Part shown: positions 40,524 to 59,948 of the stretch, piece by piece
How positions within the stretch are numbered: the first letter of the stretch is position 1
Layout: each line of letters begins with the position of its first letter
From: an uncultured Candidatus Rokubacteria bacterium
Lineage (GTDB): Bacteria; Methylomirabilota; Methylomirabilia; Rokubacteriales; CSP1-6
Direction of reading: 5' to 3'
Length of the DNA: 64,000 bases
Assembly (NCBI GenBank): GCA_963758635.1
Contig: CAVWWD010000002.1
Location: 1 to 64,000 of the forward strand
Notes under the pieces: model-generated
Database searches by the model: none
The model's input: the letters and a program-made list of their open reading frames with translations, nothing else
What the model was told of the DNA's origin: nothing
Program-made: the position numbers and the translations under genes

Positions 40524-40904
40524 TCACCTCGGGAGGCCGCGTCCATCACGCGAGTGCTGGAGCAGCTGGACCGGCCGGACCTCGAGCACCGCGACGCGCG
40601 CCGCCGGAAATCTCGCCGCGACGGCGCAGGCCTCGTCCATGTCCTTGGCCTCGATGACGAAGAATCCACCCAGCTGTTCCCTGGTCTCGGCAAAGGGGCT
40701 GGCCGTGGTGGAGGCCTGACCGTCGCCGACGCGGATGGTCCGCGCCGTCCGGACAGGCTGCAGGGCATCGGTGGCGACGAGGTGGCCGGTTCGCCTGAGC
40801 TCCTCGGCGTACTCGATCGAGGCGTCGACGAGGGCCCCCAACTCCTTCTCGGGCATCGCGGCCAGCTCGTTCTCGTCGTGGTAGATCGTGAACATGAATC
40901 TCAT
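40524..40904 (-). CDS. YciI/DGPF-type protein
   Basis: ALQP..TARTIRV, xPFAETREQLGGFFVIEA, EVRPV. Confidence 0.88.
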   Translation of the reverse strand: MRFMFTIYHDENELAAMPEKELGALVDASIEYAEELRRTGHLVATDALQPVRTARTIRVGDGQASTTASPFAETREQLGGFFVIEAKDMDEACAVAARFPAARVAVLEVRPVQLLQHSRDGRGLPR

Positions 40905-41002
40905 CGCATCCTCCTCGCGAGCGGAGCCCGTGGGCCCTGGGCTCGCGCTGGGGTCACTCTGGAGAAGGTATACCAGGCCGGTGTCCTTCTCGCGCGACAG
41001 CG

Positions 41003-44000
41003 TCACCTGGCGAGGCGGGCGCGCTCGAGCGCCGCCACGCGGCGATACTGATCGGAGCCCAGCTCCGCGGCGAGGGCGTCCACGGACCCGAGCGCGCTCG
41101 CGATCGCCGCGCGGTCGGCGGCGGGCTCCGAAGCCACGAGGCGAGCCCACGCCAGCGCGACATCGAAGGCGCCGAGCCGCCAGCCTCGTCCCCGATCCAC
41201 GAGCTCACGCGCCTCGGCGAGGAGCCCGCGGGCTTCGGCGCGGGCGCCCGCGGCCCGCTTCGCGTCCGCGAGCGTCGCGAGGATGCGCGGCTCGTACCAT
41301 AGCGCGGTGCGCCGATCGCGCGCGAGCGCGAGGGCCTGCTCGAGCACGCCCGTGGCCGCGTCCAGATCGCCGTCGGCGAGCTCCGCGGCGCCGAGAAACC
41401 CCGCCGCCTCCACCCGAGAGAACACGCTTCCGCCCTCTTCCGCGAGCTCGACGGCACGGCGGCCGTGCGCGAGCGCCCCGGGCACGTCTCCTCGCAAGCG
41501 CAGCACCTCGCACAGGAACGCGTGCGTTCCGTAGAGGGCCTGGAGCGGGGGCTCGCTCTCCTCGGCGAGGAGGGCTCGCAGGGCGGTCTCGCCCTCGCCC
41601 GAGCGCCCGAGATGCGTGCTCGCCAGCGCCCACCACACGCGGCACAAGCCAGGTGCGGTGGAGTGCCCGACCGCCTCCCGCAGCCCGGGCACCCGCGCGA
41701 CCTCGGCAAGAGCCCGCTCCGCGGTCGCGCGGGCGGGAGCGAGGCGGCCGGCGGCGAGCTGTGCGTGGGCCAGCACCGAACGGATCTCGAACTCGAAGGC
41801 GGCGTCGGATCCTTCGGCAAGCTCCATCGCATGCTCCGCGCACGCGAGGTACTGCCCGACATCGCCCGCGAGCCCGCAGAGGCGCCCATAGGAGGTGAGC
41901 AGGAACGCGTGGCCGGCCTTGTCCTGAAGCCGCTCGGCGACCGCGCGCGCCTCGTCGAACAGGCCACGGGCCTCGCCCTCCTCGATTCCGGCGATCCGGC
42001 CGATCTCGAGCAGCGCGATGCGGGAGGTGAGCTCGAGCATCAGGGTCTCGCGGCGCTCCGGAACGGCGGCGAGGAGCGCGGTGACCCGACGGCAGTGTCT
42101 CGCGCCCTCCGCCGGGTCACTGCGCGCGACGCGGCGGCCCGCCTGCTCGTGCCAGCGCGCCGCGTCGAGATGCTCGCCGGCCTCGTCGAAGTGATGCGCG
42201 AGGATCGCCGCGTGGGTGACCGCCGAGGGTCCGTGGAGCGTCAGCAAGGCTCGCGCGATGGCGGCATGGGTTCCGCGGCGCCGATCCAGGAGCTGCGTGC
42301 GATAGGCCACCTCCTGTGTGAGGGGATGGCGGAAGGCGTGATCCCCCGGAGACCCGGCAGGCCCGAGAAGCTCGGCGGTCGAAAGCCGCTCGAGGGACGC
42401 GGCGAGCTCGGGCGCGGGCAGATCGATCACGGCGCGCAGCAGCTCGACCGGGACGTCCCGGCCGACCACGGCGGCGGCCTGGAGGACGTCCTTGTCGCGG
42501 TCCCCGAGCCGATCGATGCGCGAGGCGAGAACGGCCTGGACCGTCTCGGGCAGCGTGATCTCCTCGATCGGGGCGGCCAGCCGGTAAGCGCCGCGTTCGC
42601 CGCGCAGCCCGCCACCCTCCACGAGCGAGCGAATCATCTCCTCGAGGAAGAGCGGGTTGCCGCGAGCCCGGCCCTCGATCCGGTCGCGCAGGGGCGCGAG
42701 CCCCGGATCAGCCCCGAGCCAGTCGTCCAGCAACACCCCCCCTTCCTGAAGGCCGAGGGGCGCAAGGGAGAGGGTCTCGACACCCGACGACCACCGAGGC
42801 CGATACTCGGGCCGCATGGTCGCGAGCAACAGCAGCCGGCTCCCCGCCGACTCCGGGGCCAGGAGACGCTCGACGAGCATCTCCAGCGCCGCCTCGCTCG
42901 CGGGGTCGAGCCAGTGCAGGTCCTCGACCCAGAGCACCGTGAGCTCGCGCCGAGCGCGCGCCTCGATCACATCGAGCAGCGACCGGAAGAGACGTGCGCG
43001 GCGCGCTTCGGGATCGAGTCCTGACGGCGCGGGACCGTGATCGGACACCCCGAGGAGGTCGAGCCAGAGATCCAGGGTGGTCGGGTCGGGCGGCGCATGA
43101 CCGAGACCGCGTCGCACGGCCTCCCGGAGGTCCGACGGCGGCGCGACTTCGGCGACCCCGAAGAGACTGCGCGCAAGCGCGACGACCACGTGAAAGGGAA
43201 GCATGCGTCCGTGGGAGGGCGCGCGGACGGAGTGAAGCGCCACGCCGCGCGCGCGCTCCACGAACTCGTGACAGAGGCGGCTCTTTCCCGCGCCCGGCTC
43301 CGCGGTGACCAGGACGACGCCCGGGCGGCCCGACTGCGCCTCGCGCAGAGCGGCCTCGAGCAGAGCGAGCTCGCGCTCGCGGCCCACGAAGCGCGAGAAG
43401 CCGCGCGCCCGGGAGCGCTCGAGGCGGCTCCGGACCGGGCCCGGACCCCGCAGCTCGAACACGCGCACGGGATGGCTCGCGCCCTTGAGACGCTGTTCCC
43501 CGCGGTCGAGGAAGTCGAAGAAGCCCGCCGCGAGGCGCGCGGTCTGCCCGGTCACGGCGATGCCGCCCGGTGGCGCCAGCTGCTGCACCCGGGCCGCGAG
43601 CCCGACGACGTGCCCCTGCGCGGTGTAGTCCATGCGCAGGTCGTCGCCGATCCGCCCCACGACCACCTCGCCGGAGTTCAGGCCCATCCGGACCGCGAGG
43701 TCGAGCCCGCTCCGCCCCCGCACGTCGTCGGCGAGCGCGCCGAGCTCGCCCGTCAGGTCCAGGGCGGCCGCACAGGCGCGCTGGGCGTGATCCTCATGGG
43801 CGATCGGGGCGCCGAAGAGCGCCATGATGCCGTCGCCGGTGTACTGGTTCACGGTCCCCTCGTATCGGTGGACACCACCGGCGAGGATCCGGAACATGCG
43901 ATCGAGCAGGCGATGCCATTCCTCGGGATCGACGCGCTCCGCGAGCTCCATCGAGCGCACGACGTCCGCGAAGAGGACGGTGACCAGCTTGCGCTCGCCC

Positions 44001-44159
44001 CTGAGCGCGCTCCGGGACGCCAGGATCTTCTCGACGAGATGCCGCGGCGTGTAGGAGCGCGGCTCGGGGGAGGTTGTCGGCGCAGCGAGGTGCGCGCCAC
44101 AATCGTTGCAGAACCTCGCGCCGCGCGGGGTTCTCGTGTCCGCAGAATGGGCAGCTCAC
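41003..44159 (-). CDS. Zinc ribbon + class III adenylate/guanylate cyclase + AAA (STAND-like) + TPR-like protein (frameshift near 44127)
   Basis: CPFC..FCNDC; GERKLVTVLFADV; YTGDGIMALFG; VRMGLNSG; FVGRERE; EPGAGKS; EDLHWLD; GNPLF; FRHPLTQEVAY. Confidence 0.9.
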
Positions 44160-44219
44160 GGGGCCTCGCCCATCTTAGCCTCATCCGTGAGGCCGTCGCG
44201 CCGTGACGAGGAGGACAGC

Positions 44220-44888
44220 ATGACCGAGGGGATCAGTCCGAAGCAGTTCCACGAGTCCCAGGGCGTCGAGGACTGGCGGGTCATCGGCGACGGCGCCTGC
44301 GCGTACTTTCCGACCGCCTCGTTCGCGGCGAGCGCACGGCTCGTGGGGGCCATCGGCCAGCTGCCGGGCGTCGAGGACCACGCGCCGGACGTTGACCTGC
44401 GACCTGACGGGGTGACCGTGCGCCTGATCACGTACACGGACGACTACTACGGGATGAGCCAGCGCGACGTTGACATGGCCCGACAGATCTCGGCGGCGGC
44501 CCGACGGTTGGGCCTGGTCGCCGACCCGTCGGCCGTTCAGAGCCTGCTCGTCATCCCCGGCGCGGCCTCCACCGCCGAGGTGATGCCGTTCTGGCGCGCC
44601 GCGCTCGGGTATGAGCCCCGCCGCGACAGTCCCGCCGCTGACCTCGTGGATCCGCGCGGTCGGTGGCCGGGCTTCTGGTTCGAGCGGATGAACGAGCCGC
44701 GCGCGGACGGCGGCGGGGCGATCCACGTCGCCATGTGGGTACCGTCCGAGCGGGCGGAGGCGCGCATCGCGGCGGCGCTCGCCGCCGGCGGCCGCATGGT
44801 GCGCGACGAGTTCGCTCCATCGTGGTGGACGCTGGCCGACGCAGCCGGAAACGAGGTCGACATCGCCACCGCTCGCGGCCGCGACTGA
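44220..44888 (+). CDS. Pterin-4a-carbinolamine dehydratase-like + VOC (Glyoxalase_6) fusion
   Basis: HAPDVDLR...RDVDMARQIS; FWRAALGY, LVDP, IHVAMWV, WWTLADAAGNE. Confidence 0.8.
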   Translation: MTEGISPKQFHESQGVEDWRVIGDGACAYFPTASFAASARLVGAIGQLPGVEDHAPDVDLRPDGVTVRLITYTDDYYGMSQRDVDMARQISAAARRLGLVADPSAVQSLLVIPGAASTAEVMPFWRAALGYEPRRDSPAADLVDPRGRWPGFWFERMNEPRADGGGAIHVAMWVPSERAEARIAAALAAGGRMVRDEFAPSWWTLADAAGNEVDIATARGRD

Positions 44889-44933
44889 GAGGTTGGGCCG
44901 CCCCCCGGCACGCTCCAGGCCCGGCCGGGGCGC

Positions 44934-44956
44934 AGAAGGGTCTGGCGCCTTTCCTC
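44934..44956 (+). repeat. Direct repeat copy 2
   Basis: Identical to 40452-40474. Confidence 0.85.
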
Positions 44957-44982: not shown

Positions 44983-45000
44983 TTGAGACGCCCGTCTCAA
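44983..45000. promoter_or_regulatory. Palindromic operator candidate TTGAGACG-cc-CGTCTCAA
   Basis: Perfect 8-bp arms, 50 bp upstream of the operon's first gene. Confidence 0.6.
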
Positions 45001-45050: not shown

Positions 45051-45905
45051 GTGCTCGTCGAGCGGATGGCCGTCGAGATCGAGGGCGAGGGCGAGCCGGT
45101 GCTGATGATCCACGGCCTCGGTGGAACATCGAACGTCTTCACGCCCGTGCTGCCGGCGCTGGCCCGCCACCGGACCATCCGGTTCGACCTCCCCGGATCC
45201 GGGCGCTCGCACCGCGCCGGTGGGCCGGGGCCGCTCTCCGCTCGCGCTGTTCGTCGACAAGGCTCGCCTGGTCATGGACCGGGCCGGCGTCGAGCGCGCG
45301 CACATCGTGGCGCACTCCATGGGCACGATCGTCGCGGCGCACCTCGCCGCGGCCGAGCCCGGGCGCGTCCTGAGCCTGGCGCTCTTCGGCCCGCTGCTGG
45401 CCCCGCCGGAGCCGGCCCGGGCGGCCATCCGCGCCCGCGGCGCTCAGGCGCGCCAGGGCGACATGCAGCCCATCGCCGACGCCCTGGTCCGGGCGCGAGC
45501 CTCTCGGCCGAGACGCGGGCGCGGCGACCCACGGCCGTGGCCTTCGTCCGCGAGTCGCTCATGCGGCAGGACCCCGAGGGCTACGCGCGTAGCTGCGAGG
45601 CCCTGGCCGAGATGGGGTCCGCCGACACGTCCCGGATCGACTGCCCGACGCTGCTCGTCACCGGCGACGAGGACGTTGTGGCCCCGCCCCAGGCGGTGCG
45701 CATGATGAGCGAGCGGATCACCGGAAGCCGGGTCGAGGTGCTGCGCGGCTGCGGGCACTGGACGCCGGTCGAGAAGCCCGAGGAATGCACCGGTCTGCTG
45801 CAGCGATTCCTGCTCGAGAGGAGACCGACATGGCGAACGTCCTCTTCACGAACGTCCGCATCATCGATGCGACCGGCGCCCAGCCCTATCAGGGCGAGGT
45901 CCTGA
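45051..45905 (+). CDS. Alpha/beta hydrolase (enol-lactonase-like); frameshifts near 45220-45240 and 45495; true end probably near 45830
   Basis: IHGLGG, FDLPGSGRS, AHSMG nucleophile, TGDED, GHW. Confidence 0.85.
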   Translation: MLVERMAVEIEGEGEPVLMIHGLGGTSNVFTPVLPALARHRTIRFDLPGSGRSHRAGGPGPLSARAVRRQGSPGHGPGRRRARAHRGALHGHDRRGAPRRGRARARPEPGALRPAAGPAGAGPGGHPRPRRSGAPGRHAAHRRRPGPGASLSAETRARRPTAVAFVRESLMRQDPEGYARSCEALAEMGSADTSRIDCPTLLVTGDEDVVAPPQAVRMMSERITGSRVEVLRGCGHWTPVEKPEECTGLLQRFLLERRPTWRTSSSRTSASSMRPAPSPIRARS

Positions 45906-47107
45906 TCCAGGGCAACCGCATCTCCCGCGTCGGCCGCGGGTCCCGCAGCCTCGCCACCTCCGGCGTCACCGTGATCGACGGCGCCGGCGCCACGCTCATG
46001 CCGGGCATGTGCGAGGCGCACACCCACTTCGGCTGGACCAACTCCAAGACGCTGGACGCCATCCAGAAGATGCCGCCGGAGGAGCACACCCTCTGGGCGG
46101 CCCAGGTGGCCAAGACCTACCTCGACCACGGCTGGACCTCGTGCGTGGGCGCGGCCACCCCGAAGCCGCGGCTCGACTGCGTGATCCGCGACGCCATCAA
46201 CTCCGGGCAGATCCCGGGGCCGCGGTACCTCGCGGCGAGCCAGGAGATCACGGTGACGGGCTCGCTCGGCGACGACATGCTCCCCCACCTGCCCTTCCCG
46301 GAGATGTCCTTCGGCTGCGTGGTGGACGGCCCCGACGGCATGCGCAAGGCGGTGCGGATGTTCCTCAAGTACGGCGTGGACCAGGTGAAGCTCAACCTGT
46401 CCGGCGACAACCTGGTGCCGGGGGCCGACGCCCGCACGAGCTGGATGAGCGACGAGGAGGTGGCCGTGGCCGCCCACGAGGTGAAGGTGCGCGGCAAGCG
46501 GCTGGCCTCCCACGCGCGCTCGAGCGAGTCCGTGAAGCAGAGCCTGCGCCACGGCGTGGAGGTGATCTACCACGCCAGCTTCACCGACGAGGAGGCGCTC
46601 GACGGGCTGGAGGCCCGGAAGGACAAGATCTTCGTCGCGCCCGGCCTCTCCGTGATCATCCGCCTGCTCTACGAGGGCGAGGTGGTCGGCATCTCGAACG
46701 ACGACGCCAAGCGGATGGGCTACGAGCTGGAGCTCGAGGCGGCGGTGAACAGCATGAAGGCGATGCTCCGGCGCGGGATCCGCGTGCTGCCCGGCGGCGA
46801 CTACGGCTTCGCCTGGGCGCCGCACGGCGAGAACGCGAAGGACCTGGAGTACTTCGTGAAGTACCTCAACATGACGCCGATGGAGGCCATCATCTCGGCC
46901 ACGCGCTGGGGCGGTCAGATCATGATGCGCCGCGACCTGGGCGAGATTCGCGAGGGCTGGCTGGCCGACCTGCTGCTGGTGGACGGCGACCCGCTGGCGA
47001 ACATCTCCATCCTCCAGGACAAGTCCAAGCTGCTGGCGATCATGAAGGACGGCGAGTTCACGAAGGCGCCCGAGATCCGGTCCACCCGGAGCCGCTGGGT
47101 CGCGTGA
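45830..47107 (+). CDS. Metal-dependent amidohydrolase (prolidase-like subgroup)
   Basis: MPGMCEAHTH, VKLN, ASHAR, IYHAS, GGDYG, ADLLLVDGDP. Confidence 0.9.
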   Translation: MANVLFTNVRIIDATGAQPYQGEVLIQGNRISRVGRGSRSLATSGVTVIDGAGATLMPGMCEAHTHFGWTNSKTLDAIQKMPPEEHTLWAAQVAKTYLDHGWTSCVGAATPKPRLDCVIRDAINSGQIPGPRYLAASQEITVTGSLGDDMLPHLPFPEMSFGCVVDGPDGMRKAVRMFLKYGVDQVKLNLSGDNLVPGADARTSWMSDEEVAVAAHEVKVRGKRLASHARSSESVKQSLRHGVEVIYHASFTDEEALDGLEARKDKIFVAPGLSVIIRLLYEGEVVGISNDDAKRMGYELELEAAVNSMKAMLRRGIRVLPGGDYGFAWAPHGENAKDLEYFVKYLNMTPMEAIISATRWGGQIMMRRDLGEIREGWLADLLLVDGDPLANISILQDKSKLLAIMKDGEFTKAPEIRSTRSRWVA

Positions 47108-48051
47108 CGCGACTCTGGATCGCGCTCTGGGCGGTCCTCATCGGGCTGCCGGTCGTCGTCTTCGCGGCCTGGGCGCTCCAGGACAACGCGCGCCTGTTCG
47201 TCGTCACGCTGCTCAACGGCCTCACGCTGGCCTCGCTCTACTTCATCGTGGCGCGCGGCTTCACGCTGGTGTTCGGGCTCATGCGCAACGTGAACCTGGC
47301 GCACGGCTCGCTGTACCTCCTGGGCGGCTACCTCGGGTTCTACACCGGGCAGTTCACCGGCTCGTGGCTGCTCGCGCTGGCCGTGGGCTTTGCCGCCGCC
47401 GCGGTCGTCGGCCTCGCCATGCAAGTGTCGATCTTCCGCTTCATGCCCGGCCAGGACCTGCGGCAGACGATGGTCACGATCGGGCTCTCGATCGTCATCG
47501 CCGACCTCCTCATGTGGGCGATCGGCGCTCAGGTCCACCAGATGTCGCCCCCGCCCTGGCTCGACGGTCCCCTGCGCAACCTGCCGGTGATCCGCGCCTA
47601 CTCGACGTACCGGCTCTCGCTGCTGCCCATCGGCATCGTGATCGGCGTGGCGCTCTGGCTGTTCCTGAACCGCACGCGGGTCGGCATGATGATCCGCGCC
47701 GGCGTCGACGACCGCGCCATGCTCGCGGCGGCGGGCGTCAACGTCAACCTGGTGTTCGCCACGACGTTCGCGCTCGGGGCCGGGCTGGCCGGCCTCGGCG
47801 GCGTCATCGGCGTGGTGGAGCTTTCCATGGTGCCCGGCGAGGACACGCGCCTTCTCCTGGCGTCGCTCGTGGTGGTGATCGTTGGCGGTATGGGCAGCGT
47901 GGTGGGGGCGGCGATCGGCGCCGCCATCCTCGGCCTGGCCGAGACCTACGGCCTCGCCTACGCGCCCACCTACAGCGTGATGTTCACCTTCGTGATCCTC
48001 GTGCTGGTGCTCGCTTTCCGTCCGCGCGGCATCCTCGGCCGGCCCGCATGA
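47104..48051 (+). CDS. Branched-chain-type ABC permease (LivH-like)
   Basis: GFTLVFG..NVNLAHG, G..IRAG.DD, VGGMGS, RPRGILG. Confidence 0.9.
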   Translation: MTRLWIALWAVLIGLPVVVFAAWALQDNARLFVVTLLNGLTLASLYFIVARGFTLVFGLMRNVNLAHGSLYLLGGYLGFYTGQFTGSWLLALAVGFAAAAVVGLAMQVSIFRFMPGQDLRQTMVTIGLSIVIADLLMWAIGAQVHQMSPPPWLDGPLRNLPVIRAYSTYRLSLLPIGIVIGVALWLFLNRTRVGMMIRAGVDDRAMLAAAGVNVNLVFATTFALGAGLAGLGGVIGVVELSMVPGEDTRLLLASLVVVIVGGMGSVVGAAIGAAILGLAETYGLAYAPTYSVMFTFVILVLVLAFRPRGILGRPA

Positions 48052-49205
48052 GCGCCGCCGACTGGCGCCGCGCCATGAATCTCCAGCCCCGCCCGCTGGG
48101 CACGCCGGCGGGGCGCCCGGCCGTCCGGGCCGCCGGCGCGCCGCGGGCGCCCCGGCGTCGGCTCACGAATCCCGTGCGCGCGCGGCATGTGATCGTGCTC
48201 GCCTTCCTGCTCGCCTACCCGTGGTTCGCGCCGCCGTTCTTCACGTACCAGATCGGGGCGCAGGCCCTGGCGCTCGGCCTCATCGCGCTGTCACTCACCT
48301 TCCTGGCCGGATACGGCGGCATGATCTCGCTCGCGCAGATGACGGTGGCGGGCATCGCCGGCTACATGCTGGCGATCTTCGGCACCGCGGCCACGGACGG
48401 GGTCACGCTCGGCTGGCCGTGGTGGCTCGCCGTCATCATCGCGCTCCTCATCGCGGTCCTGGCCGCCGCGGGCATCGGCTGGCTCTCCGTCCGCACCGAG
48501 GGCATCTACACCATCATGATCACGCTGGCCATCGGCGTGGCGTTCTACTACCTGGCCCTGCAGAACTACACCGTGTTCAACGGCTTCCAGGGCATGCAGA
48601 AGGTGTTCCCGCCGACGCTCGCCGGCGTCTACTGGCGCGACCCCACGCCGTTCTACTACCTGGCGCTGGCCTGCGCGCTGGCCGGCTACCTCTTCGTGGT
48701 CTACCTGATGCGCACGCCCTTCGGGATCGCGCTCCAGGGCATCCGCGACAACCCGCGCCGGATGCACGCGCTGGGCTTCAACGTGACGGCCCACCGGGTG
48801 GCGGCCTACGCGGTGGGCGGCGCGCTCGCCGCGGTGGGCGGGGTGCTGTTCACCTGGTACAACGGCCTCGTGACGCCGGGCTCGGTGGGCACGGGGTGGC
48901 TCATCAACATCCTCATCATCGCGGTGCTCGGTGGCATGCGGCATCCGGTCGGCGCCTTCCTCGGCGCCATCGTCTTCGTGCTCGTCCAGAACTTCGCCAT
49001 CGACGTCATCAACCGCGAGCGCTTCAACCTGGTGATCGGAGTGGTGTTCCTCGTCATCGTGCTGTTCTCGCGCGACGGCCTGCTCGGCTGGTGGGCGGCC
49101 CTGAGCGCCCGGGTGTCAACTCAAAGAGGAGGGAGTCCATGGACATCGGCAAGAAGACGCTGGTATGCGCGCTCGTCGTCGCCGTCGGCATCGTCGCCGT
49201 CCTGA
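48048..49205 (+). CDS. Branched-chain-type ABC permease (LivM-like); 3' end uncertain
   Basis: GYGGMISLAQ, GIYTIMITLA, PFGIALQGIRDN, VLGG. Confidence 0.88.
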   Translation: MSAADWRRAMNLQPRPLGTPAGRPAVRAAGAPRAPRRRLTNPVRARHVIVLAFLLAYPWFAPPFFTYQIGAQALALGLIALSLTFLAGYGGMISLAQMTVAGIAGYMLAIFGTAATDGVTLGWPWWLAVIIALLIAVLAAAGIGWLSVRTEGIYTIMITLAIGVAFYYLALQNYTVFNGFQGMQKVFPPTLAGVYWRDPTPFYYLALACALAGYLFVVYLMRTPFGIALQGIRDNPRRMHALGFNVTAHRVAAYAVGGALAAVGGVLFTWYNGLVTPGSVGTGWLINILIIAVLGGMRHPVGAFLGAIVFVLVQNFAIDVINRERFNLVIGVVFLVIVLFSRDGLLGWWAALSARVSTQRGGSPWTSARRRWYARSSSPSASSPS

Positions 49206-50387
49206 GCGCGGGGGCGATCGCGCAGGCGCCCCCGGTCAAGATCGGGCTGCTCGCCACGCTGGAAGGTCCGTTCGCGGCCGGCGGCCAGGACGGCATGCGC
49301 GGCGCCGAGCTGGCGGTGCGCCAGCGGAACGGCGTGGTCGCCGGCCGCAAGATCGAGATCGTCAAGGCCTCGTCCGACGCGAAGCCCGACGTGGCGGTGA
49401 ACGCCACCCGGAAGCTGGTCGAGCAGGACAAGGTCGACATCATGGTGGGGCCGCTCTCCGGCTCCGAGGGCATCGCGGTCAAGGAGTACTCGAAGACGCA
49501 GCCCAACATCACGTTCATCAACGGCTCGTCGGGCGCCCAGGCCACGACGCTCGTCAACCCGTCGCCGAACTTCTTCCGCTTCAACACGGACGGCGGCCAG
49601 TGGATGGTGGGCCTCGGCAAGGCGGCGCTGGACAAGGGCTACAAGCGCGTGATGGTCATCGCCGAGGACTACGCCTTCCCCTACTCGCAGGTGCAGGGCT
49701 TCATGACCGAGTACTGCAAGCTGGGCGGCAAGGTCCCGCTGAAGGCGTGGGTGCCGCTCGGCGGCAAGGACTACTCCTCGGTGATCGCGCGCATCCCCAA
49801 GGACGTGGACGCGCTGGTGGTGGTGCTGGGCGGCGCCGACGCGGTGAACTTCCTGAACCAGTACGAGCAGGCCGGCGGTGACAAGCCGATGGTCGGCGGC
49901 TCGATCACGGTGAGCCAGGACATCCTCAACTACAAGGGCAAGCGCCGCGACTCGCTGGTGGGCACCATCGCCGGCGCGCCGATCGCCGACGCCTACGAGG
50001 CGCCGGAGTGGCGAGCGTTCGTCGCCGACTACAAGAAGAACTTCCCCGACGGCTATCCCAGCCCGTCGCTGTTCGCGCTGGTCTACTACCTCAACATGAA
50101 GGCGACGCTCGACGGCCTGGACGCCGTCAAGGGCGACCTCTCGGACGGCCAGAAGAAGTACCGCGACGCGCTCAGCAAGATGACGCTCAAGTCGCCCGTC
50201 GGCGACGTTCAAGCTGGACGCCAACCGGCAGGCCATCGGCACGACGTTCATCACCGAGGTGGTGAAGGACAGCCAGGGCAACCTCTACAACAAGGTGCTC
50301 CGGAAGATCGACAACGTGAACCAGACGATGGGCATGACGCCGGCCGATTTCAAGATCGGCTCGCGCGACGAGCCGAATTGCCCATAG
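49139..50387 (+). CDS. ABC substrate-binding protein (Peripla_BP_6); frameshift near 50210
   Basis: Signal peptide; VKIG, GRKIE, VGPLSGSEG, NFFRF, DYAFP. Confidence 0.9.
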
Positions 50388-50409
50388 TGAGGGGCCCCGT
50401 CGGGGCATA

Positions 50410-51169
50410 GTGGCGGATTCACCCACCCGCGTCTCGGGTGACGCCCTCGTGCTGGAGGGCGTCACCCGGACGTTCGGCGCGCTCCACGCGATCGAGGACG
50501 TTCTCGTTCTCGGTCGCGGTGGGGGAGCGTCGCGCCGTGATCGGCGCCAACGGCGCCGGCAAGACCACCCTGTTCAACGTCGTCACCGGCGACTTCCCGG
50601 CCACGCGGGGGCGCGTGCGGTTCTTCGGCGAGGACGTGACCACGCTGCCGCCTCACGAGCGCATTCGCATGGGCATGCGCCGGACGTATCAGTCCTCGCT
50701 CCTGTTCCGTGACCTCACCGTGCGCGACAACCTGTTCCTGGCCGTGCGCGGCGTCGCGCGCAACCGCTTCAGCTTCCTGCGGGCGTCGAGGAACGGTCCG
50801 GCCGACGAGCTCCTCGATCGGGTGCGGCTCACCCCCGTGGCCGAGTCCCCGGTGGCCGCGCTGTCCCACGGCCAGCAGCGCCAGCTCGAGATCGGCATGG
50901 CGCTGGCGGGCGCGCCGCGCCTGATCCTGTTCGACGAGCCCGCCGCGGGACTGTCGCCCGCCGAGCGCGGGGAGCTGGTGACGCTGCTGCGGGGCCTGCC
51001 CGCGCACATCGGCTTCATCCTGATCGAGCACGACCTGGACATCGCGCTCCGCGTGGTCGACCGCGTCACGGTGCTCCACAACTCCCGCGTGCTCAAGCAC
51101 GGGAGCCCGGCGGAGATCGAGAACGACGCCGAGGTGCAGGCGATCTACATGGGGGACCGGGCCCGGTGA
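50410..51169 (+). CDS. ABC ATPase (LivG-like); frameshift near 50500
   Basis: [23 protein letters not shown]. Confidence 0.9.
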
Positions 51170-51185
51170 TCGGGGGGCGCGGGCG

Positions 51186-53451
51186 GTGATCCTCGAGATC
51201 CGGAACCTGGACGTTCTACTACGGCCGGGCTCACGCGCTCCAGGGCGTGTCGCTCGCGCTGGACCGTGGCGTCCTGGCCGTGGTGGGCCGGAACGGCATG
51301 GGCAAGACCACGCTCTGCAACGCGGTGACGGGGCTGGTCCCCGCCTCGGGGAGCGTGAAGCTCGCCGGCGAGGAGATCCTGGGGCTGGCGCCGAACGCGA
51401 TCACGACCAAGGGCGTCGGGTACGTGCCCCAGGGCCGTCGCGTGTGGCCCTCGCTGTCCGTGGACGAGCACCTCCGGCTGGCCCGGCGGCGGGGGCCGTG
51501 GACGGTGGAGCGCATCTACCAGACCTTCCCGCGCCTGGCCGAGCGCAAGGGAAACGGCGGCGCCGAGCTGTCGGGCGGCGAGCAGCAGATGCTCGCCATC
51601 TCCCGCGCGCTGCTGCTCAACCCCAAGCTGCTGGTCATGGACGAGCCCACCGAGGGGCTGGCCCCGATCATCGTGCAGCAGGTCGAGGCCATGCTGAAGG
51701 CGCTCACCGCCGAGGGCGCGATCTCGGTGCTGCTGATCGAGCAGAACCTGGGCGTGGCCATCGACGTGGCCGACACCGTGGACGTGATGGTGAACGGCCG
51801 CATCGCGCGCTCGATGCCCACCGCCGCGCTGGCCGCCGACCGCGACCTGCAGCAGCGCCTGCTCGGCGTGAAGCTCGACACCGAGCTGACGGCGGAGGTG
51901 GCGGTCGAGCCCGAGGGCGAAGCCCGTCGCCGACCCGAGGGCGAAGCCCGTCGCCGAGAGGACGCGGGCCCGGCGGTGCAGGTGCTGACGGTGCGGCGCG
52001 CCACCGACTCCGTGGTGGTCGAGCCTTCCTCGCCGGCGTCTGCGCCCGCGCCTGCGGAGGAGCGGACCATCCGAGGCTTCACGCGCTGGGGCTCGACCGG
52101 CCGCGACCACGTCGTGGGCGCGCCGGAGCCGGTGGCGGCCGACGCCCACGCGGCGGAGCTCCGTGGGGGAGAGCAACAGCCCCGCGCCGGAGAGTTGCTG
52201 CCGGTGGCCCAGATGGTTGGCCGCGCCGCCTACATCGCCGGCACCTTCGACACCAAGGGCCGCGAGCTGTTCTACCTGCGCACGTGCCTCGAGAGGCTCG
52301 GCGTGCGCACGGTGACCGTGGACCTGGCCACGTCGGGCACGCCGTCGCCCGCCATGGTCCATCCGCGCGAGGTGGCGCGGCACCATCCCGGCGGCGAGCG
52401 CGCGGTGTTCACCGGCGACCGCGGCTCCGCGGTCACCGAGATGGCCGTGGCCTTCGAGGAGTTCGTGACCCGCCGGCGCGACATCGGCGGCCTGATCTCG
52501 GCGGGCGGGTCGGGCGGCACCGCGCTCGCCACCCGCGCCATGCGCCGGCTGCCCATCGGCGTGCCCAAGGTGATGGTGTCCACGGTGGCGTCGGGCGACG
52601 TGAAGCCCTACGTCGGCCCCTCCGACATCTGCATGATGTACTCCGTCACCGACGTGGCCGGCATCAACCGCATCTCGGAGAAGGTGCTCGCCAACGCGGC
52701 GCACGCGCTGGCCGGCATGCTGGCCTTCGCCCGCTCGCCCGCCTCGCCCGAGGCGCAGAGCAAGCCCGCCCTCGGTCTGACGATGTTCGGCCTCACCACC
52801 CCGTGCGTGCAGGCAGTGTGCAAGCAACTCGAGGACGAGTACGACTGCCTGATCTTCCACGCCACCGGCACCGGCGGGCAGAGCCTGGAGAAGCTCGCCG
52901 ACTCCGGCCTGCTCGCCGCGGTGCTCGACCTCACCACCACCGAGGTCGCCGACGAGGTCGTGGGCGGCGTGCTCTCCGCGGGTCCCACGCGGATGGACGT
53001 GTTCGCGCGAACCACCATCCCCTACGTCGGCTCCTGCGGCGCGCTCGACATGGTCAACTTCTGGGCCCGGCCCACCGTGCCCGAGCGCTTCAAGGAGCGG
53101 ACCCTCCACGTCCACAACCCGAACGTCACCCTGATGCGCACCACGTCCGACGAGGCGCGACGCATCGGCCGGTTCATCGCCGACAAGCTCAATCGCATGG
53201 AGGGGCCGGTGCGGTTCCTGATCCCCGAGGGCGGCCTCTCCGGCCTCGACCGGCCCGGCGGCTCCTTCTGGGACCCGGCCGCGAACACGGCGCTCTTCGA
53301 CGCGCTCGCCGCCGAGTTCCGCGCCGGCACGAACCGCAAGCTCACCAGAGTGCCGCACCACATCAACGACCCCGCGTTCGCCGACACGGTGGTCGCCACC
53401 TTCCGCGAGGTCAGGACCGCATGGCCCGAATCGATCGCCAGGACATCCTGA
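51186..53451 (+). CDS. ABC ATPase (LivF-like) fused to a Tm-1-like/UPF0261 ATP-binding domain; frameshift near 51215
   Basis: [27 protein letters not shown], then in frame [57 protein letters not shown]. Confidence 0.88.
51910..51957 (+). repeat. 2 x 24-bp tandem repeat CCCGAGGGCGAAGCCCGTCGCCGA (PEGEARRR x2) in the fusion linker
   Basis: Exact duplication; each unit contains a GGGC-GAA-GCCC hairpin. Confidence 0.85.
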
Positions 53452-54272
53452 GTCGGCTCTCCGGCATGGCCCGTCGCGGCGAGCCGATCATCGGCGGCGG
53501 CGCCGGCACCGGGCTGTCCGCCAAGTGCGAGGAGGCCGGCGGCATCGACCTCATCGTGATCTACAACTCGGGGCGGTATCGCATGGCCGGGCGCGGCTCG
53601 CTCGCCGGCCTGCTCGCCTACGGCAACGCCAACGAGATCGTGCTGGACATGGCGCGCGAGGTGCTGCCCGTGGTCACGCGCACGCCGGTGCTGGCCGGGG
53701 TCAACGGCACCGACCCCTTCCTGCTGCTCGACCCATTTTTGAAGACGCTGGGCGAGCTGGGGTTCTCGGGCGTGCAGAACTTCCCGACGGTCGGCCTCTT
53801 CGACGGGGTCATCCGGGCCCAGCTCGAGGAGACGGGCATGGGCTACGCGCTCGAGGTGCAGATGATCGAGCGCGCCCGAGCGCACGACCTCCTCACCACG
53901 CCCTACGTCTTCTCGGAGGACAACGCCCGCGACATGGCCCGGGCCGGCGCCGACATCGTGGTGTGCCACCTGGGGCTCACCACGGGCGGCGCCGTCGGCG
54001 CGCGCACCGCGGTCACCCTCGAGGCCTGCGTGCCCCTCATCGACGCGTGGGCGGCGGCGGCCCGCGCGGTGAACCCGGACGTCCTCGTCCTGTGCCACGG
54101 CGGGCCGATCGCCACCCCGGACGATGCCGCGTACGTCCTGGCCAAGACCCGGAGCTGTCACGGCTTCTACGGCGCCTCCAGCATGGAGCGCCTGCCGACC
54201 GAAATCGCGCTGACGGAGACCACGCGGTCGTTCAAACGCATCGGCCTCCGTCCGAAGGAGAAGGCGTCATGA
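53421..54272 (+). CDS. TIM-barrel 'signal transduction'/PEP-hydrolase-like protein (TIM-br_sig_trns)
   Basis: [60 protein letters not shown]. Confidence 0.92.
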
Positions 54273-55843
54273 CAGGGGCCCAGCTCGGCCAGCTCGTCCT
54301 GGCCATCATCGTCCTCGCCGCGGTCGTGGCGATCGTCGCCTGGCTGCTCAACTGGCTCTACCTGCGCTCCTCCAAGGAGCGCGCCTTCGTCCGCACCGGC
54401 TTCGGCGGACAGAAGGTCGTGGTGAACGGCGGCGCCCTCGTGCTGCCGATCGTCCACGAGGTGATCCCGGTGAACATGAACACGCTTCGCCTGGCGGTGA
54501 CGCGCGGCCGCGACCGGGCCCTCATCACCAAGGACCGCATGCGCGTGGACGTGATCGCCGAGTTCTACGTGCGCGTGCAGGCCGCGCCCGAGGCCATCGC
54601 CGCCGCCGCCCAGACGCTGGGCCAGCGCACCATGCAGCCGGAGATGCTCGGCGAGCTGGTGGAAGGCAAATTTGTCGACGCGCTCCGAACAGTAGCCGCC
54701 GAGATGACCATGGAGGAGATGCACGAGAAGCGCGGCGACTACGTCAAGCGCGTGCGCGCCGTGGTGGCGGCCGACCTGCTGCAGAACGGCCTGGAGCTGG
54801 AGACGGTGTCGCTCACCCAGCTCGACCAGACCGCCATGGAGTTCTTCAACCCCTCGAACGCCTTCGACGCCGAGGGCCTGACGCGGCTCACCGAGACCAT
54901 CGAGACGCGCAAGAAGAAGCGGAACGACATCGAGCAGGACACCATGATCCAGATCCGCAACAAGAACCTGGACACCGAGCGCCAGGCCCTGGACATCGAC
55001 CGCGAGCTCGAGTACGCGCGCCTGGAGCAGACCCGGGAGCTGGAGGTGAAGCGCGCGGGCCAGCGCGCCGACGTGGCGCGGGAGCAGGCGGTCAAGGCCC
55101 AGGAGGCCGAGCGCGCCCAGATCCAGGCCCGCGAGCAGGTGGAGCGCGCGCGGATCACCTCCGAGCGCGCGGTGGAGGAGGAGCGCATCGCCCGCGAGCG
55201 GCAGATCGAGTCGCTGGAGGTGGAGCGCCGCACGGCGATCGAGCTGGCCGAGCAGCAGCGGGCCATCGCCGTCGCCGAGCAGTCCCGGATCCAGTCCGAG
55301 GCTCAGGCCGCCGCCGACCAGGCCCGCGCCAAGGCCGTGACCGAGGAGGAGCGCGTGTTCACCGCCCGCGACACCGAGACGGCCGAGCGGCGCAAGCGGG
55401 TGGAGATCGTCCAGGCCGAGGCCGACGCCGAGGCCAGCCGCATCCGTGCCATGGCCGCGAAGATCCACCACGAGGTGGAAGCCGCGGGCCTCACGCTCAT
55501 GAACACGGCGGCCAACCTGCTCACCCCGGAGGCGCGCCAGTCCGCGCTGCGCCGCCAGCTCATCGACAGGCTGGAGGGCATCATCCGCGAGTCGGTGAAG
55601 CCCATGGAGCGCATCGAGGGCATCCGCATCCTGCACGTCGAGGGGCTGGGCGGCAGCCGCGGCGGCGGGCCGGGCAACGGGGGCGGCGGCGGGATCGCCG
55701 ACAGCGTCGTGGACTCGGCCCTGCGCTTCCGGGCCCAGGCGCCGCTCATCGACCAGCTGCTGCGCGAGATCGGCGTGCAGGGCGGCGATGTCGGCCAGGC
55801 GGCCAAGGCGCTGCTCGAGCGCAGCGAGCAGCCCGCGGAATGA
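54269..55843 (+). CDS. Flotillin/SPFH (band 7) family protein
   Basis: N-terminal [42 protein letters not shown], long EA-rich coiled coil. Confidence 0.9.
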
Positions 55844-55912
55844 GCGGCGGGCGGCAGTGAACGGCGAGCGGCCGGCGGCGAGCAGCGGCCACCCGGCGGC
55901 GCGGGCGGCGGC

Positions 55913-56350
55913 ATGATCAAGGTCTACACGTCGAGCGTCATCGACGCGCCCGCCGACGCCGTCTGGGCGCAGGTGCGCGACTTCAACGGCCTGCCGCGCT
56001 GGACGCCGTTCGTGGCCGAGTCCCGCATCGAGGAGGGCCAGCCCGCGGACCGCATCGGCTGCGTGCGGAACTTCCGGCTGCGGGACGGCGGCGTGATCCG
56101 CGAGCGCCTGCTGACGCTCTCGGACTACGACTACCAGTGCACCTACTCCATCCTGGAGTCCCCGATGGGGGTCGAGAACTACGTCGCCACCCTCAAGCTG
56201 ACGCCGGTGACGGACGGCGGCCGCACCTTCGCGGAGTGGTGGGCCGAGTTCGACTGCGCCCCCGAGCGCGAGGCGGCGCTGGCGGAGCAGATCGGCCAGG
56301 GCGTCTTCCAGGCGGCGTTCGACTCGCTGAAGAAGGTCTTCGCCCGGTAG
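55913..56350 (+). CDS. SRPBCC/START (polyketide_cyc2, MxaD-like) protein
   Basis: VIDAPADAVW..VRDFNGL..W.P, IRERLL, NYVATL. Confidence 0.88.
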   Translation: MIKVYTSSVIDAPADAVWAQVRDFNGLPRWTPFVAESRIEEGQPADRIGCVRNFRLRDGGVIRERLLTLSDYDYQCTYSILESPMGVENYVATLKLTPVTDGGRTFAEWWAEFDCAPEREAALAEQIGQGVFQAAFDSLKKVFAR

Positions 56351-56364
56351 GCGAGGTCGGCGTC

Positions 56365-57810
56365 GTGTCGAGGATCCGGGTTCGCCGGTCCGCCGTGATC
56401 GACGCGCCGATCGAGCGCGTGTGGGCGGTGCTGCGCGATTTCAACAGCCACTCGGCCTGGCACCCCGCGGTCGGCCCCTCCGAGATCGAGCGTGGCGAGG
56501 CGGCCGACCAGGTCGGCTGCGTGCGCGACTTCACGCTCAAGGACGGCAACCACATCCGCGAGCAGCTCCTGGCCCTGTCCGACCGCGACCACGTCTCGAC
56601 CTACTGCATCCTCGACGCGACGCTGCCGATGCGGAACTACGTCGCCACGGTGGAGCTCAAGCGGGTGACGGACGGCGATCGCACGTTCTGGCACTGGGAG
56701 TCCACGTTCGACGTTCCGCGCGGCCGGGAGCGCGAGTTCGAAGAGCTGGTCGGCGGCCAGGTGTACGAGGCGGGCTTCACCGGCCTCGCGGCGTACCTGC
56801 GGCGGGACGGGCGCGTGGGCTCGCATCCCCGCGTGGTGGATGCCTGGGCCCCGGTGGATGCCCGGGCCGTCGTGGCGACGGCGTTCGGCGGTCCGGAGGT
56901 GCTGCAGCTTCGGCGCGTCGACGCGCCCCCGCCGCGCTCTGGCGAGGTCAAGCTGCGCCAGACGGCGATCGGCGTGAACTACATCAACGTCTACGTGCGC
57001 GCCGGCGTCTACCGCATGATCGAGCCCCCGGCGGCCATCGGCATGGAGGCGGCCGGCGTCGTCCTGGAGAGCGGCGCCCCGGGCTTCCGCCCCGGCGACC
57101 GCGTCGCGTATGCGTGCACTCCGCCGGGCGCGTACGCCACCGTGCGCACGCTGCCCGCATCCGCGCTCGTGCTCCTCCCCGACGACGTGAGCGAGGAGAC
57201 GGCGGCTGCGCTCATGCTGAAGGGCATGACCGCCGAGTACCTCCTGCACCGCACGTACCGCGTCCGGCCCGGCGACGCCGTGCTGGTGCACGCCGCGGCC
57301 GGCGGCGTCGGGCTCCTGCTCTGCCAGTGGGCCCGGGCGCTGGGCGCGCGCGTCATCGGCACGGTGTCGAGCGAGGCCAAGGCGGAGCTGGCCCGGGTCC
57401 ACGGCTGCGAGCACCCGATCGTGACCAGGACCTATTCCTTCGCGGAGCAGGTGAAGCGGATCACCGGCGGCCGCGGCGCCGACGTGATCTACGACGGCCT
57501 CGGCCGCGACGCGGCATCCGAGAACCTGACGGCGCTCGCCGTGCGCGGCCACTGGGTGAGCTACGGACACGCCACCGGCCCCCTCGATCCCGTGAACCTG
57601 GCCGAGAAGTCCGGCACCCTGTCCCAGCCGGTGCTCTTCCACTACACCGAGGATCTCCTGCAGCAGATGGCCGGCCGGGTGTTCGCCGCGTTGCGCGACG
57701 GCATCATCCGGCCCGACGTGCGCCACCGCTATCCCCTCGCCGCCGCGGCCGACGCCCACCGCGACCTGGAAGCGCGGCGGACCACCGGGCAGATCGTCCT
57801 GCTGCCCTGA
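56365..57810 (+). CDS. SRPBCC domain fused to NADPH:quinone oxidoreductase (MDR family)
   Basis: SRPBCC paralogous to the upstream gene, then FGGPEVL, GVNY, LKGMTA.YL, HAAAGGVG, TTGQIVL. Confidence 0.88.
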   Translation: MSRIRVRRSAVIDAPIERVWAVLRDFNSHSAWHPAVGPSEIERGEAADQVGCVRDFTLKDGNHIREQLLALSDRDHVSTYCILDATLPMRNYVATVELKRVTDGDRTFWHWESTFDVPRGREREFEELVGGQVYEAGFTGLAAYLRRDGRVGSHPRVVDAWAPVDARAVVATAFGGPEVLQLRRVDAPPPRSGEVKLRQTAIGVNYINVYVRAGVYRMIEPPAAIGMEAAGVVLESGAPGFRPGDRVAYACTPPGAYATVRTLPASALVLLPDDVSEETAAALMLKGMTAEYLLHRTYRVRPGDAVLVHAAAGGVGLLLCQWARALGARVIGTVSSEAKAELARVHGCEHPIVTRTYSFAEQVKRITGGRGADVIYDGLGRDAASENLTALAVRGHWVSYGHATGPLDPVNLAEKSGTLSQPVLFHYTEDLLQQMAGRVFAALRDGIIRPDVRHRYPLAAAADAHRDLEARRTTGQIVLLP

Positions 57811-57844: not shown

Positions 57845-58853
57845 TCAGGGCGCTCGCGTCGCCGAGACCAGCCGGGTGATCGTGGGAATGACCTCGCGAT
57901 CCCGGATGTCCGTGAAGCCCCGCGCGACGAGCTGGGCCGAGAGCGCGCCCGGCGTGAGCAGGCCGGCGTCGGGATCGTTCAACAGGCCGGACAGGAGCCA
58001 GAGGGCGGCGGACGTGGGCCCGCTGCCGTCGTCGTCCACCATGAAGTCGTGCACGAGCAGGGTGCCCCCCGGCGCCAGCGCTCCGAACGAGCGCGAGAGC
58101 AGCTCCGTCTTCGCTGCCGCGCTCACCGCGCTCATCAGGTAGGAGATCAGCACAACGTCCTGGGCGCCGGGCCACGGCGTCTCGAGCGCGTTGCCGGCCA
58201 GGAACGTGATGCGGCCGTCGAGCCCGGCCTCCCGCGCGAAGCGTTCCGCGACGGTCTGCACCTGGGGGAAGTCGAGGATCGTGCAGCGCAGGCCGGGGTG
58301 GCGCCGGCAGAGCGTGATGCTGAAGGCGCCGCTGCCACCGGCCACGTCGAGGAGCGTGCGCGCGCCCGACAGGTCCACGAGCTTGCTCGTCACCACCGCG
58401 GGGCCGAGGGAGCCCGCGTGCTGCGCGCGGCTGAAGTACTCGGCCTCCTCGTCGTTCTGGGTCAGCCCGTAGAACTGCATGCGCTTGCCCCGGAGCGCTT
58501 CGGAAAGCCCCGCGAAGGCCGGGTACACCTGCCGGTCGATCTGGAAGCGATAGTAGTCGCCGAAGTAGCGGGGCGCCGTCCGCACCAGGTACTCCTGGGC
58601 CGCCGGCGCGTTGGCGAAGGCGTCGCCCGACTTCCCGAGCAGGCCCATGCTCACGCAGGCCGTGAGCAGCACGGCGAGCCGCGGAGCCGGGACGCCGGTG
58701 CCGCCCGCCAGCTCCTCGAGCGTCCTGGGCCCGTCCGCGAGCCGGCCGAACACGTCGAGCTCGAGCGCCGTGAAGAACGCTTTCGACGCCATGAAGCCGT
58801 AGGCGAGCCGGGAGATGTCCCGGAACGTCGGTCAGCGGGGCAACACCAGCCAT
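57845..58853 (-). CDS. SAM-dependent O-methyltransferase (Methyltransf_2 with dimerisation domain); frameshift near 58825
   Basis: YGFMASKAF..ALELDVF, LLDVAGGSG, LDFP, L.PGG.LLVHDF. Confidence 0.85.
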
Positions 58854-59023: not shown

Positions 59024-59044
59024 TTATGGTCTGTGTAACCTTAT
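59024..59044 (+). promoter_or_regulatory. NrtR-type operator TTATG-GT-N7-AC-CTTAT overlapping a TTGCAC/TAACCT promoter
   Basis: 21-bp imperfect palindrome with the GT-N7-AC core directly upstream of nrtR. Confidence 0.65.
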
Positions 59045-59057
59045 GTCTCACGTAGCC

Positions 59058-59840: not shown

Positions 59841-59948
59841 CCCGGTCCAGAGGAGGACAGCCCATCCATGTGCTCAAGTAATGGTGGGAGACACCTTAAC
59901 AAACGCGCAGAAAGCGCTCACCAAGCAGTCGATGAGGGAGGACACGCG

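Follow-up and report, generated by a model that had tools for sequence, protein, structure and literature searches.

MarK (Saro_1862, PDB 9MPY) of Novosphingobium aromaticivorans, described in 2025, is a UPF0261 protein reported to be an ATP-dependent phenol kinase that releases ADP (PMC12624787). According to that report, Lys16 raises the rate ~1600-fold, D14, T15 and K16 are putative ATP residues, the phenolic oxygen is held by G195 and H219 and the ketone by H348, with H304 stacking; the two sites lie ~25 A apart and MarK is active alone (PMC12624787). The other close system is that of the plant Tm-1-like proteins, in which UPF0261 is fused to a PF09370 TIM barrel (TBST); the pair is reported in bacteria, archaea, fungi and all land plants, and the two genes co-evolve (PMC5028733). 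Here we describe an operon at nt 45051–57810 of contig CAVWWD010000002.1 from an uncultured Candidatus Rokubacteria bacterium, in which a UPF0261 domain is instead fused to LivF, an ATPase of an ATP-binding cassette (ABC) importer, and TBST is encoded separately. The 64,000-nt stretch analysed (the window) belongs to contig C2 of an assembly of 12 contigs and 6.17 Mb, to which Rokubacteria are the closest relatives. We propose that the operon couples import of a hydroxylated ring compound to its phosphorylation and catabolism, a proposal we hold to be evenly balanced between right and wrong.

The fusion is read from an open reading frame (ORF) at nt 51247–53451, 734 residues without a stop, which carries PF00005, PF06792 and PF23189 in one frame. 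The Pfam spans place the ABC ATPase at residues 9–135 and the two halves of UPF0261 at residues 328–494 and 506–722. PF06792 scores 205 bits and PF23189 299 bits against a cut-off of 27, and NF002673 scores 611 against 520, which makes the domain a member of the UPF0261 family. The operon is laid out as follows.

45051–45905, + strand: alpha/beta hydrolase, PcaD/RutD-like, Ser-Asp-His motifs present; 2 frameshifts in the assembly
45830–47107, + strand: binuclear-metal amidohydrolase, prolidase/ochratoxinase-like, metal-ligand motifs intact, C-terminal SRW tail
47104–48051, + strand: LivH-type permease (family scans)
48048–49205, + strand: LivM-type permease (family scans)
49139–50387, + strand: substrate-binding protein (SBP), Peripla_BP_6; frameshift near 50200–50233
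50410–51169, + strand: LivG ATPase; frameshift near 50500
51186–53451, + strand: LivF::UPF0261 fusion gene; one-base assembly error at ~51214, open from 51247
within the fusion gene, + strand: LivF ATPase to ~51870; linker of ~117 residues, 51871–52221; complete UPF0261 domain, 52222–53451
53421–54272, + strand: TBST, PF09370 TIM barrel, predicted phosphate-binding enzyme
54269–55843, + strand: flotillin with N-terminal membrane segment, SPFH, coiled coil and Flot domain
55913–56350, + strand: SRPBCC (Polyketide_cyc2) protein with conserved Arg and Glu
56365–57810, + strand: SRPBCC fused to an NADPH:quinone-reductase-type (QOR) domain

A first-pass annotation, made from the letters alone, had described 11 co-directional, mostly overlapping genes with LivF continuous in frame with a Tm-1-like domain. 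The ORF listing and the Pfam and NCBIfam scans agree with it in strand and in every family; 6 of the 10 junctions overlap and the other four are gaps of ~14–70 nt. Its statement that the bacterial function of the domain is not established is out of date, since MarK, a UPF0261 protein, is reported as an ATP-dependent aromatic kinase (PMC12624787). No stop lies between LivF and the Tm-1-like domain, a break that the annotation had named among those findings that would refute its reading. The frameshifts of the assembly fall elsewhere, in the hydrolase (two), the SBP C-terminus, the start of livG and the start of livF (~51214). Because the extra base at 51214 is missing from contigs of related organisms in 4/4 runs, the break at the 5′ end of livF is an assembly error; among such contigs, the indel at 45487 was seen in one run and that at 50501 in one run.

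Relatives were taken as the best 80 of 174 confirmed stretches from a genome scan, a set biased toward fusions because the best-scoring stretches were kept. LivF and UPF0261 share one frame in 72 of the 73 loci with both halves, and the sole split locus carries several frameshifts. Six of the remaining seven loci end at a contig edge and one is genuinely unfused. In the phylum of the window, full-length matches occur in 17 of 200 genomes, the source genome included (one has a stop inside the match), and partial matches in 4 further genomes. The hosts of the fusion comprise Rokubacteria, Alpha-, Beta- and Gammaproteobacteria and Thermodesulfobacteriota, with gene order kept over three phyla. 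A long-read artefact is rejected on the strength of the 72/73 loci, the other genomes of the phylum and the related contigs. In an alignment of 71 fusions (70 of the 72 fused loci plus the window), the Walker A Gly and Lys, Q-loop, LSGGE, DEP and EQN of LivF are invariant. RefSeq names the fusion protein 'ABC transporter permease', a label that hides it in annotation. No description of the fusion or the operon was found in the searchable literature, which excludes most subscription papers, and the supplementary homologue lists for MarK may include fusions. The fusion operon is thus real, widespread and apparently undescribed, and is built from known families.

The window domain matches MarK with E 2.6e-58 (201 bits) and tomato Tm-1 (3WRY), its closest solved relative, with E 2.7e-91 (310 bits). 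MarK residues were mapped onto it by counting along the printed alignment. D335-T336-K337, the equivalents of MarK D14/T15/K16, and G515, H538 and H623, those of G195, H219 and H304, are present in 71/71 fusions. The position of H348 is I, L or V in 71/71, so that the ketone-binding His is lost; F283 is replaced by M in 70/71 and I285 by N in 71/71 (window residues L, M and N at H348, F283 and I285, respectively). These replacements are those of tomato Tm-1 (GALDMVNF, with L at the H348 position). The Tm-1-type pocket recurs in close unfused domains of bacteria and archaea, while divergent branches differ. As judged from the aligned residues, the pocket would suit a flat ring that bears a hydroxyl and lacks the ketone contact of MarK. 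A large divergent branch (L184–L198, twelve unfused domains) has Asp or His at the I285 position and Trp at the H348 position, is without TBST and often lies beside aldehyde dehydrogenase; it is likely a further kinase subfamily with another substrate.

MarK and the window domain share the whole-length two-lobe fold and the residues above, and the MarK gene also lies in a catabolic operon. MarK, however, is a free homodimer in an acvCDEF carboxylase operon in which no TBST is described, whereas the window domain is fused to LivF and paired with TBST, flotillin and SRPBCC proteins. It is highly improbable that the operon runs a MarK-type pathway for lignin-derived acetophenones, with phosphorylation followed by biotin-dependent carboxylation. 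MarK homology, the kept phenol-binding residues and the soil and rhizosphere habitat of the runs that best hold the operon would fit such a pathway, but H348 is absent in all aligned fusions, the domain is closer to Tm-1 than to MarK, and a motif scan found the biotin-carboxylase signature in 0/146 loci, with a five-letter motif like that of biotin carboxyl carrier protein in 3/146, one of them fused. No acvCDEF or hpeCBAD carboxylase genes were found in the window operon or the annotated loci. With a Tm-1-type pocket and no carboxylase motif nearby, the fused domain, which resembles MarK in its testable parts, would therefore stand outside the acetophenone pathway of MarK. Identity of the pair with the AcvAB/HpeHI kinases was considered and dropped, as those are treated as a different enzyme type in the account of PMC12624787. 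The likeness to plant Tm-1-like proteins (3WRY; PMC5028733) lies in the same pocket residues and the same UPF0261 and TBST pair. The two differ in that TBST and UPF0261 are in separate frames here and in 78/78 loci, and in contrast to tomato Tm-1 there is no sign of an antiviral role in this operon.

TBST belongs to the family of Mll9387 (PDB 2P10; PF09370, 'PEP hydrolase-like'; E 1.3e-119, Z 33.4), itself uncharacterised. For a model with a predicted local distance difference test (pLDDT) of 79, the nearest fold outside the family is triosephosphate isomerase (TIM; Z 18.8, root-mean-square deviation 2.8, 202 aligned), followed by an uncharacterised phosphate-site barrel, Pdx1.2 (17.8), IGPS (17.7), TrpA (17.3) and KDPGal aldolase (17.2). 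Phosphonopyruvate hydrolase scores Z 16.3, and the phosphoenolpyruvate (PEP) mutase and isocitrate lyase barrels 15.3–16.3. Foldseek gives the same picture. The label 'phosphonopyruvate hydrolase' of Mll9387 is thus not borne out by the fold ranking, where phosphate-binding barrels stand slightly higher. HGGP is found in 107/107 close homologues and G248/G251/A252/S253/S254 in 106/107, and HGGP and GFYGASS lie at the ends of strands 7 and 8. Barrels of the TIM/IGPS/TrpA type bind phosphate at the ends of these strands. From the model, TBST is predicted to be a phosphate-binding enzyme, and a kinase followed by a phosphate-binding barrel would be the simplest reading of UPF0261-TBST co-evolution. 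PEP-mutase chemistry is without profile support (hhalign to one PEP_mutase protein, probability 1.1%), and the fold still allows it.

The pair could instead be one two-part enzyme, spending ATP on ring opening, dehydration or C-N cleavage by way of a transient phospho-intermediate with no free phospho-product. Co-evolution and the plant fusion (PMC5028733) would be expected of such an enzyme, TBST is present in 5/5 checked genomes in which a UPF0261 gene has no TBST as neighbour, and the ~25-A separation of the MarK sites (PMC12624787) means that a partner could complete the site in the fused clade. MarK, however, is reported to work alone, TBST can lie far from the UPF0261 gene, and the separate frames hold throughout; we consider this quite unlikely. 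A complex prediction for the UPF0261 domain and TBST scored 0.00 and, run without folded controls, gives no verdict and is not evidence either way. Relocated TBST genes, elsewhere in the genome or upstream, were seen in the fused operons L171, L172 and L149, and in L171 and L172 flotillin is followed by inserted genes, toxin-antitoxin-like or other. For L150 (G290:C77, 700–2814), L163 and L170 it was noted that a fused operon ends in a second, divergent UPF0261 and TBST pair with a different pocket, and that in other loci a single TBST is flanked by two divergent UPF0261 genes.

Whether the domain senses rather than catalyses has also to be asked. It might be a regulatory module that senses a nucleotide or ligand and either slows the importer or passes on a signal, TBST then being a sensor and not an enzyme. 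Regulatory C-terminal domains are common on ABC ATPases, as in MetN, ModC and MalK, and divergent TBST domains are input domains of sigma-54-type activators beside several such operons. Tm-1 itself is reported to grip a protein by way of bound ATP (PMC12624787). This is unlikely, seeing that the domain is a complete 400-residue two-lobe protein with its hydroxyl pocket intact, that close unfused modules lie with cupin, SRPBCC or oxidoreductase genes without transporter fusion, and that the operon TBST keeps QNFP, YNSG and YGASS, which the divergent copies have lost.

No gene of the core livHM-SBP-livG-livF::UPF-TBST-flot-SRPBCC-SRPBCC is missing where the contig extends far enough: TBST 77/77, flotillin 73/73, livG 72/72, both SRPBCC genes 63/63 each, SBP 62/62, livM 57/57 and livH 52/52. 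Accessory genes are less constant (QOR 56/59, amidohydrolase 46/50, hydrolase 39/42, FAH 28/40); all these counts leave out the unfused locus. Subtype A (window, Variovorax) has TetR, FAH, hydrolase, one or two amidohydrolases, QOR and VOC. Subtype B (Shinella, Yoonia) has AraC, Fe-ADH, a molybdenum hydroxylase with MoxR/VWA, lactonase-type enzymes and isochorismatase. Subtype C (three deltaproteobacterial-type loci) consists of the core and SRPBCC-QOR only. Hydrolases and oxidoreductases are thus swapped between subtypes while the core is kept, as expected of catabolism. The gene-neighbourhood comparison that the first-pass annotation had put forward as a check accordingly favours it: the core is conserved across loci and phyla, and no assigned pathway was found for any syntenic cluster. 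The importer has the SBP, two permeases and two ATPases of LIV/HAAT systems (LivKHMGF, UrtABCDE) with all ATPase motifs intact. It differs in that LivF bears a 400-residue enzyme-like domain on a tether, and it stays below the LIV and Urt equivalog cut-offs (LivF 131/441, LivH 93/379, UrtA 60/493 bits, from ORFs that are partly frameshifted).

UPF0261, TBST and flotillin are each single-copy in the genome. The flotillin, with its N-terminal membrane segment and Band_7 and Flot domains, comes directly after TBST, whose stop overlaps the flotillin start, and SRPBCC follows. Bacterial flotillin usually has an adjacent nfeD partner gene; none adjoins it in this operon, where the check was made. 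It is the co-occurrence that suggests a microdomain role for the flotillin. Where a locus has both an SRPBCC and a QOR domain, the two are fused in 54/56 cases. The SRPBCC proteins are similar to uncharacterised bacterial proteins and show a weak likeness to lachrymatory-factor synthase; they keep an Arg and a Glu and may thus be enzymes, and small enzymes are as plausible as carriers, since in unfused modules a cupin takes their place.

The linker between LivF and UPF0261 is Ala/Pro-rich, mostly variable and 73–142 residues long. TVRR and FTRW are found in that of the window. Among 90 fusion linkers (two loci counted twice through overlapping fetches), [TN]RW occurs in 80 (shuffled mean 0.7, maximum 5) and (T/S/V/F)(V/I/L)(R/K)R in 57 (shuffled mean 2). 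The variable tails of the operon amidohydrolase hold [TN]RW in 33/97 and RW in 46/97 (shuffled means 0.8 and 10). [TN]RW is missing from many alphaproteobacterial amidohydrolase tails, and a paralogous amidohydrolase elsewhere in the source genome is without the tail. The motif occurred in only 0–2 C-terminal tails per gene for the other operon proteins, in 0/69 SRPBCC-QOR linkers, and in 1/16 stretches upstream of unfused UPF0261 domains, there before the likely start. (T/N)RW may be a docking motif common to linker and amidohydrolase tail, which is no more than a lead, and the tail could also be accounted for by an oligomerisation arm. In an AlphaFold2 model of the intact orthologue from a close relative (locus L002), two well-folded parts are joined by a connector of ~80 residues with pLDDT <50 (predicted template modelling score 0.51), and the linker is predicted to be disordered. 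No docking of the linker motifs in cis was seen in this model, and a linker of such low confidence would be uninformative on binding in trans.

An unbiased control was made of 401 alphaproteobacterial genomes, with one of the fusion carriers as the chosen centre. UPF0261 was found in 47/401 genomes at 63 places; 59 regions were fetched, giving 60 domains long enough to score, with two fragments dropped. Nineteen domains, in 19 of the 401 genomes, are fused, and 19/19 have flotillin within 6 kb and the orthologous SBP. Among 16 close unfused domains, two of them with <4 kb of downstream sequence, flotillin is near 0/16, TBST 12/16 and SRPBCC 7/16. Flotillin is near 1/25 divergent domains, and that domain is a second copy beside a fused operon. 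The flotillin counts of fused and unfused domains are not independent, as the fused domains group together on the tree, with moderate to weak support. In a quick tree of 82 rows, leaving out one short and one partial row, the fused group has SH-aLRT 92; in a careful tree of 56 rows, leaving out divergent rows, its support is 56/78, with the group in 54% of bootstrap trees. A single origin of the fusion is compatible with these trees, not shown by them.

In locus L176, livF and UPF0261 are separate overlapping genes and the SBP is 57% identical to the fused type. L176 also holds TBST, one SRPBCC gene and a sigma-54-type activator with a TBST domain; it has no flotillin, and likely represents the ancestral state. 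The chemistry could then be the same and the fusion accidental, livF and UPF0261 having merged once, the kinase acting like a free cytoplasmic enzyme and the flotillin being a mere passenger. To this we give a modest chance. L176 fits it, as do the one change needed on the tree and the variable linker, disordered in the model. Yet fusion and flotillin persist in three phyla despite replaced accessory genes and shuffled order, the linker motifs lie far above shuffled expectation, and in L149 livF::UPF has moved away from livG and is still next to flotillin.

The coupled scheme would run as follows. TetR would leave its palindrome when the substrate or its product is present, and SBP-LivHMGF would import the substrate. 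The tethered UPF0261 domain would phosphorylate a hydroxyl on a flat ring, a phenol, enol or hydroxy-heterocycle (hydroxypyrone, furanone or pyridone, for example) and not an acetophenone, trapping and activating the compound at the membrane. The product would likely be passed to TBST for a lyase- or isomerase-type step on the phospho-compound. SRPBCC proteins, or cupin in other modules, might prepare precursors or finish ring opening, a role that in this subtype the quinone/enone reductase, hydrolase, amidohydrolase and often an FAH-family enzyme would share. The flotillin might cluster the machinery, possibly through (T/N)RW motifs. Of the first-pass reading, uptake-and-catabolism or signalling, the first half is kept, with the tethered Tm-1-like domain acting on the substrate, and the signalling alternative is weakened. 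A bolder version is doubtful: an ABC importer with group translocation like that of the phosphotransferase system (PTS), in which an ATPase-tethered kinase sits in a dedicated flotillin cage, (T/N)RW docks transporter and hydrolases, and the reaction is the ancestral job of plant Tm-1-like proteins. PTS group translocation and GlpF-GlpK are known cases of transporter-kinase coupling, and the common idea is a substrate trapped by phosphorylation at entry. They share no homology with the present system, which has an ATP-driven ABC importer with a covalently tethered ATP-dependent domain and in which coupling is proposed.

Several points weigh against the coupled scheme. The kinase role is borrowed from MarK, a relative in another branch, the activity is predicted, and the domain is closer by score to Tm-1, for which no catalysis is reported. 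The D/T/K, G, H, H set is kept through most of the UPF0261 family and therefore does not specify the substrate, and the H348, F283 and I285 positions depart from MarK. For TBST, the lead of phosphate-binding barrels over PEP-mutase-type folds is small in the model comparison, the profile match that aligns its motifs with GFG and GSA of TrpA is weak (probability 8.6%), and in 2/19 fused alphaproteobacterial loci TBST is non-adjacent, being present elsewhere in those genomes. The solved SBPs nearest to that of the operon are distant (best E 3.8e-31) and name no ligand; some of them presumably bind aromatic acids. As L176 is unfused with the same transporter and no flotillin, tethering is not required, and since the fused domains may form a single clade, their link to flotillin may have arisen just once.

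The functional unit exceeds the 11 genes, adding an operator and a repressor gene that an insert has moved apart.

39800–40476, − strand: tetR repressor gene (Pfam TetR_N), orthologue of the operon's usual divergent regulator; frameshifted, boundaries approximate
40452–44956, no strand: 4.5-kb insert with YciI, adenylate cyclase-AAA-TPR and pterin dehydratase/glyoxalase genes, outside the pathway
44984–44999, no strand: palindrome TGAGAC-N4-GTCTCA, predicted TetR operator

In L002 a tetR lies immediately upstream of the operon; the window tetR is 92.5% identical to it (DNA alignment 39851–40471). The exact palindrome is single-copy in the 6.17-Mb genome. Of 149 loci examined at <=2 mismatches, it lies <=400 nt from the orthologous tetR in 40/40 loci with that tetR; the chance expectation is a mean of 0.13 per window at 1 mismatch. 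These 40 include four unfused modules (Rubrivivax, Vibrio, Rhizobium and an alphaproteobacterium), and one regulator on fused and unfused forms suggests one substrate class. The insert is bounded by a 23-bp direct repeat (40452–40474 and 44934–44956) in the 5′ end of tetR. The repeat has only two occurrences in the genome at <=4 mismatches, and L002 has one copy and no insert. The adenylate/guanylate cyclase-AAA-TPR protein is 985 residues long, the pterin-dehydratase/glyoxalase gene is a fusion, and no integrase was seen in the insert. The insert parts tetR from the operator-containing promoter, which could change regulation. A minimal module of tetR, UPF0261, TBST and DUF1097 with the same operator lies on a Vibrio plasmid (L087, 6916–10408), with DUF1097 as a possible simple transporter of the same compound. 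Searches of TetR and the SBP against the PDB gave only distant matches.

As to the substrate, accessory genes (lactonase-type, enone/quinone reductase, FAH, molybdenum hydroxylase, isochorismatase) suggest a small heterocycle containing oxygen or nitrogen. The neighbours of unfused modules, from 110 of 166 picked ORFs, show no common pathway beyond SRPBCC, cupin, Gfo/Idh/MocA, TetR/AraC and assorted transporters. In Bradyrhizobium diazoefficiens, bll3369–bll3387 agrees with subtype B for every gene, in both order and length (bll3382, 2217 nt; bll3381, 834; bll3380, 2901; bll3379, 438; bll3378, 456). Its structural genes are reported to be expressed in TY medium and to drop jointly 3.5–7.5-fold in a phaR mutant, with a 2-fold drop for the AraC gene (PMC6201568), and several of these genes are reported to rise in a nasT mutant (PMC6759348). 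For an insertion in S. meliloti SMa1334, which by length and position is probably an unfused UPF0261 gene, the account in PMC3462710 gives nodule counts close to those of the wild type and finds no expression, whether in nodules or in free-living cells. An RNA run, X11, covers all 30 bins; because the covering contigs mix organisms, expression is not established from it.

No sigma-70 promoter and no + strand terminator were found for the operon. LivM orthologues start with a conserved short segment like MSAADWRRAMN and then a variable stretch (window livM start, 48048). The window QOR domain reads GVNYINVY at 56990–57010, where the common variants listed among 56 orthologues have GVNYIDVY; the Asn for Asp may reflect a sequencing error or lost function. 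An O-methyltransferase gene (57845–58792, − strand) converges on the operon end and is beside the operon in none of 80 related loci. Beyond it, 59043–63312 (+ strand) is an ordinary NAD biosynthesis cluster of NrtR-type NUDIX regulator, nadA, nadC-like and cysteine-desulfurase-like genes, the first two called by Pfam/NCBIfam and the remainder by eye.

The only measured reaction for UPF0261 and TBST-type systems is that of MarK, which comes from a different sub-branch, and the fused clade shares the pocket of plant Tm-1. The operon gives three independent handles on the substrate: the SBP, TetR with its predicted operator, and cultured hosts, namely Variovorax paradoxus, Shinella zoogloeoides and probably B. 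diazoefficiens. Should the tether prove to matter, the operon would be a clear example of kinase-coupled import by an ABC transporter and of a flotillin that serves a single metabolic machine. The operon thereby gives a testable way to approach what plant Tm-1-like proteins normally do.

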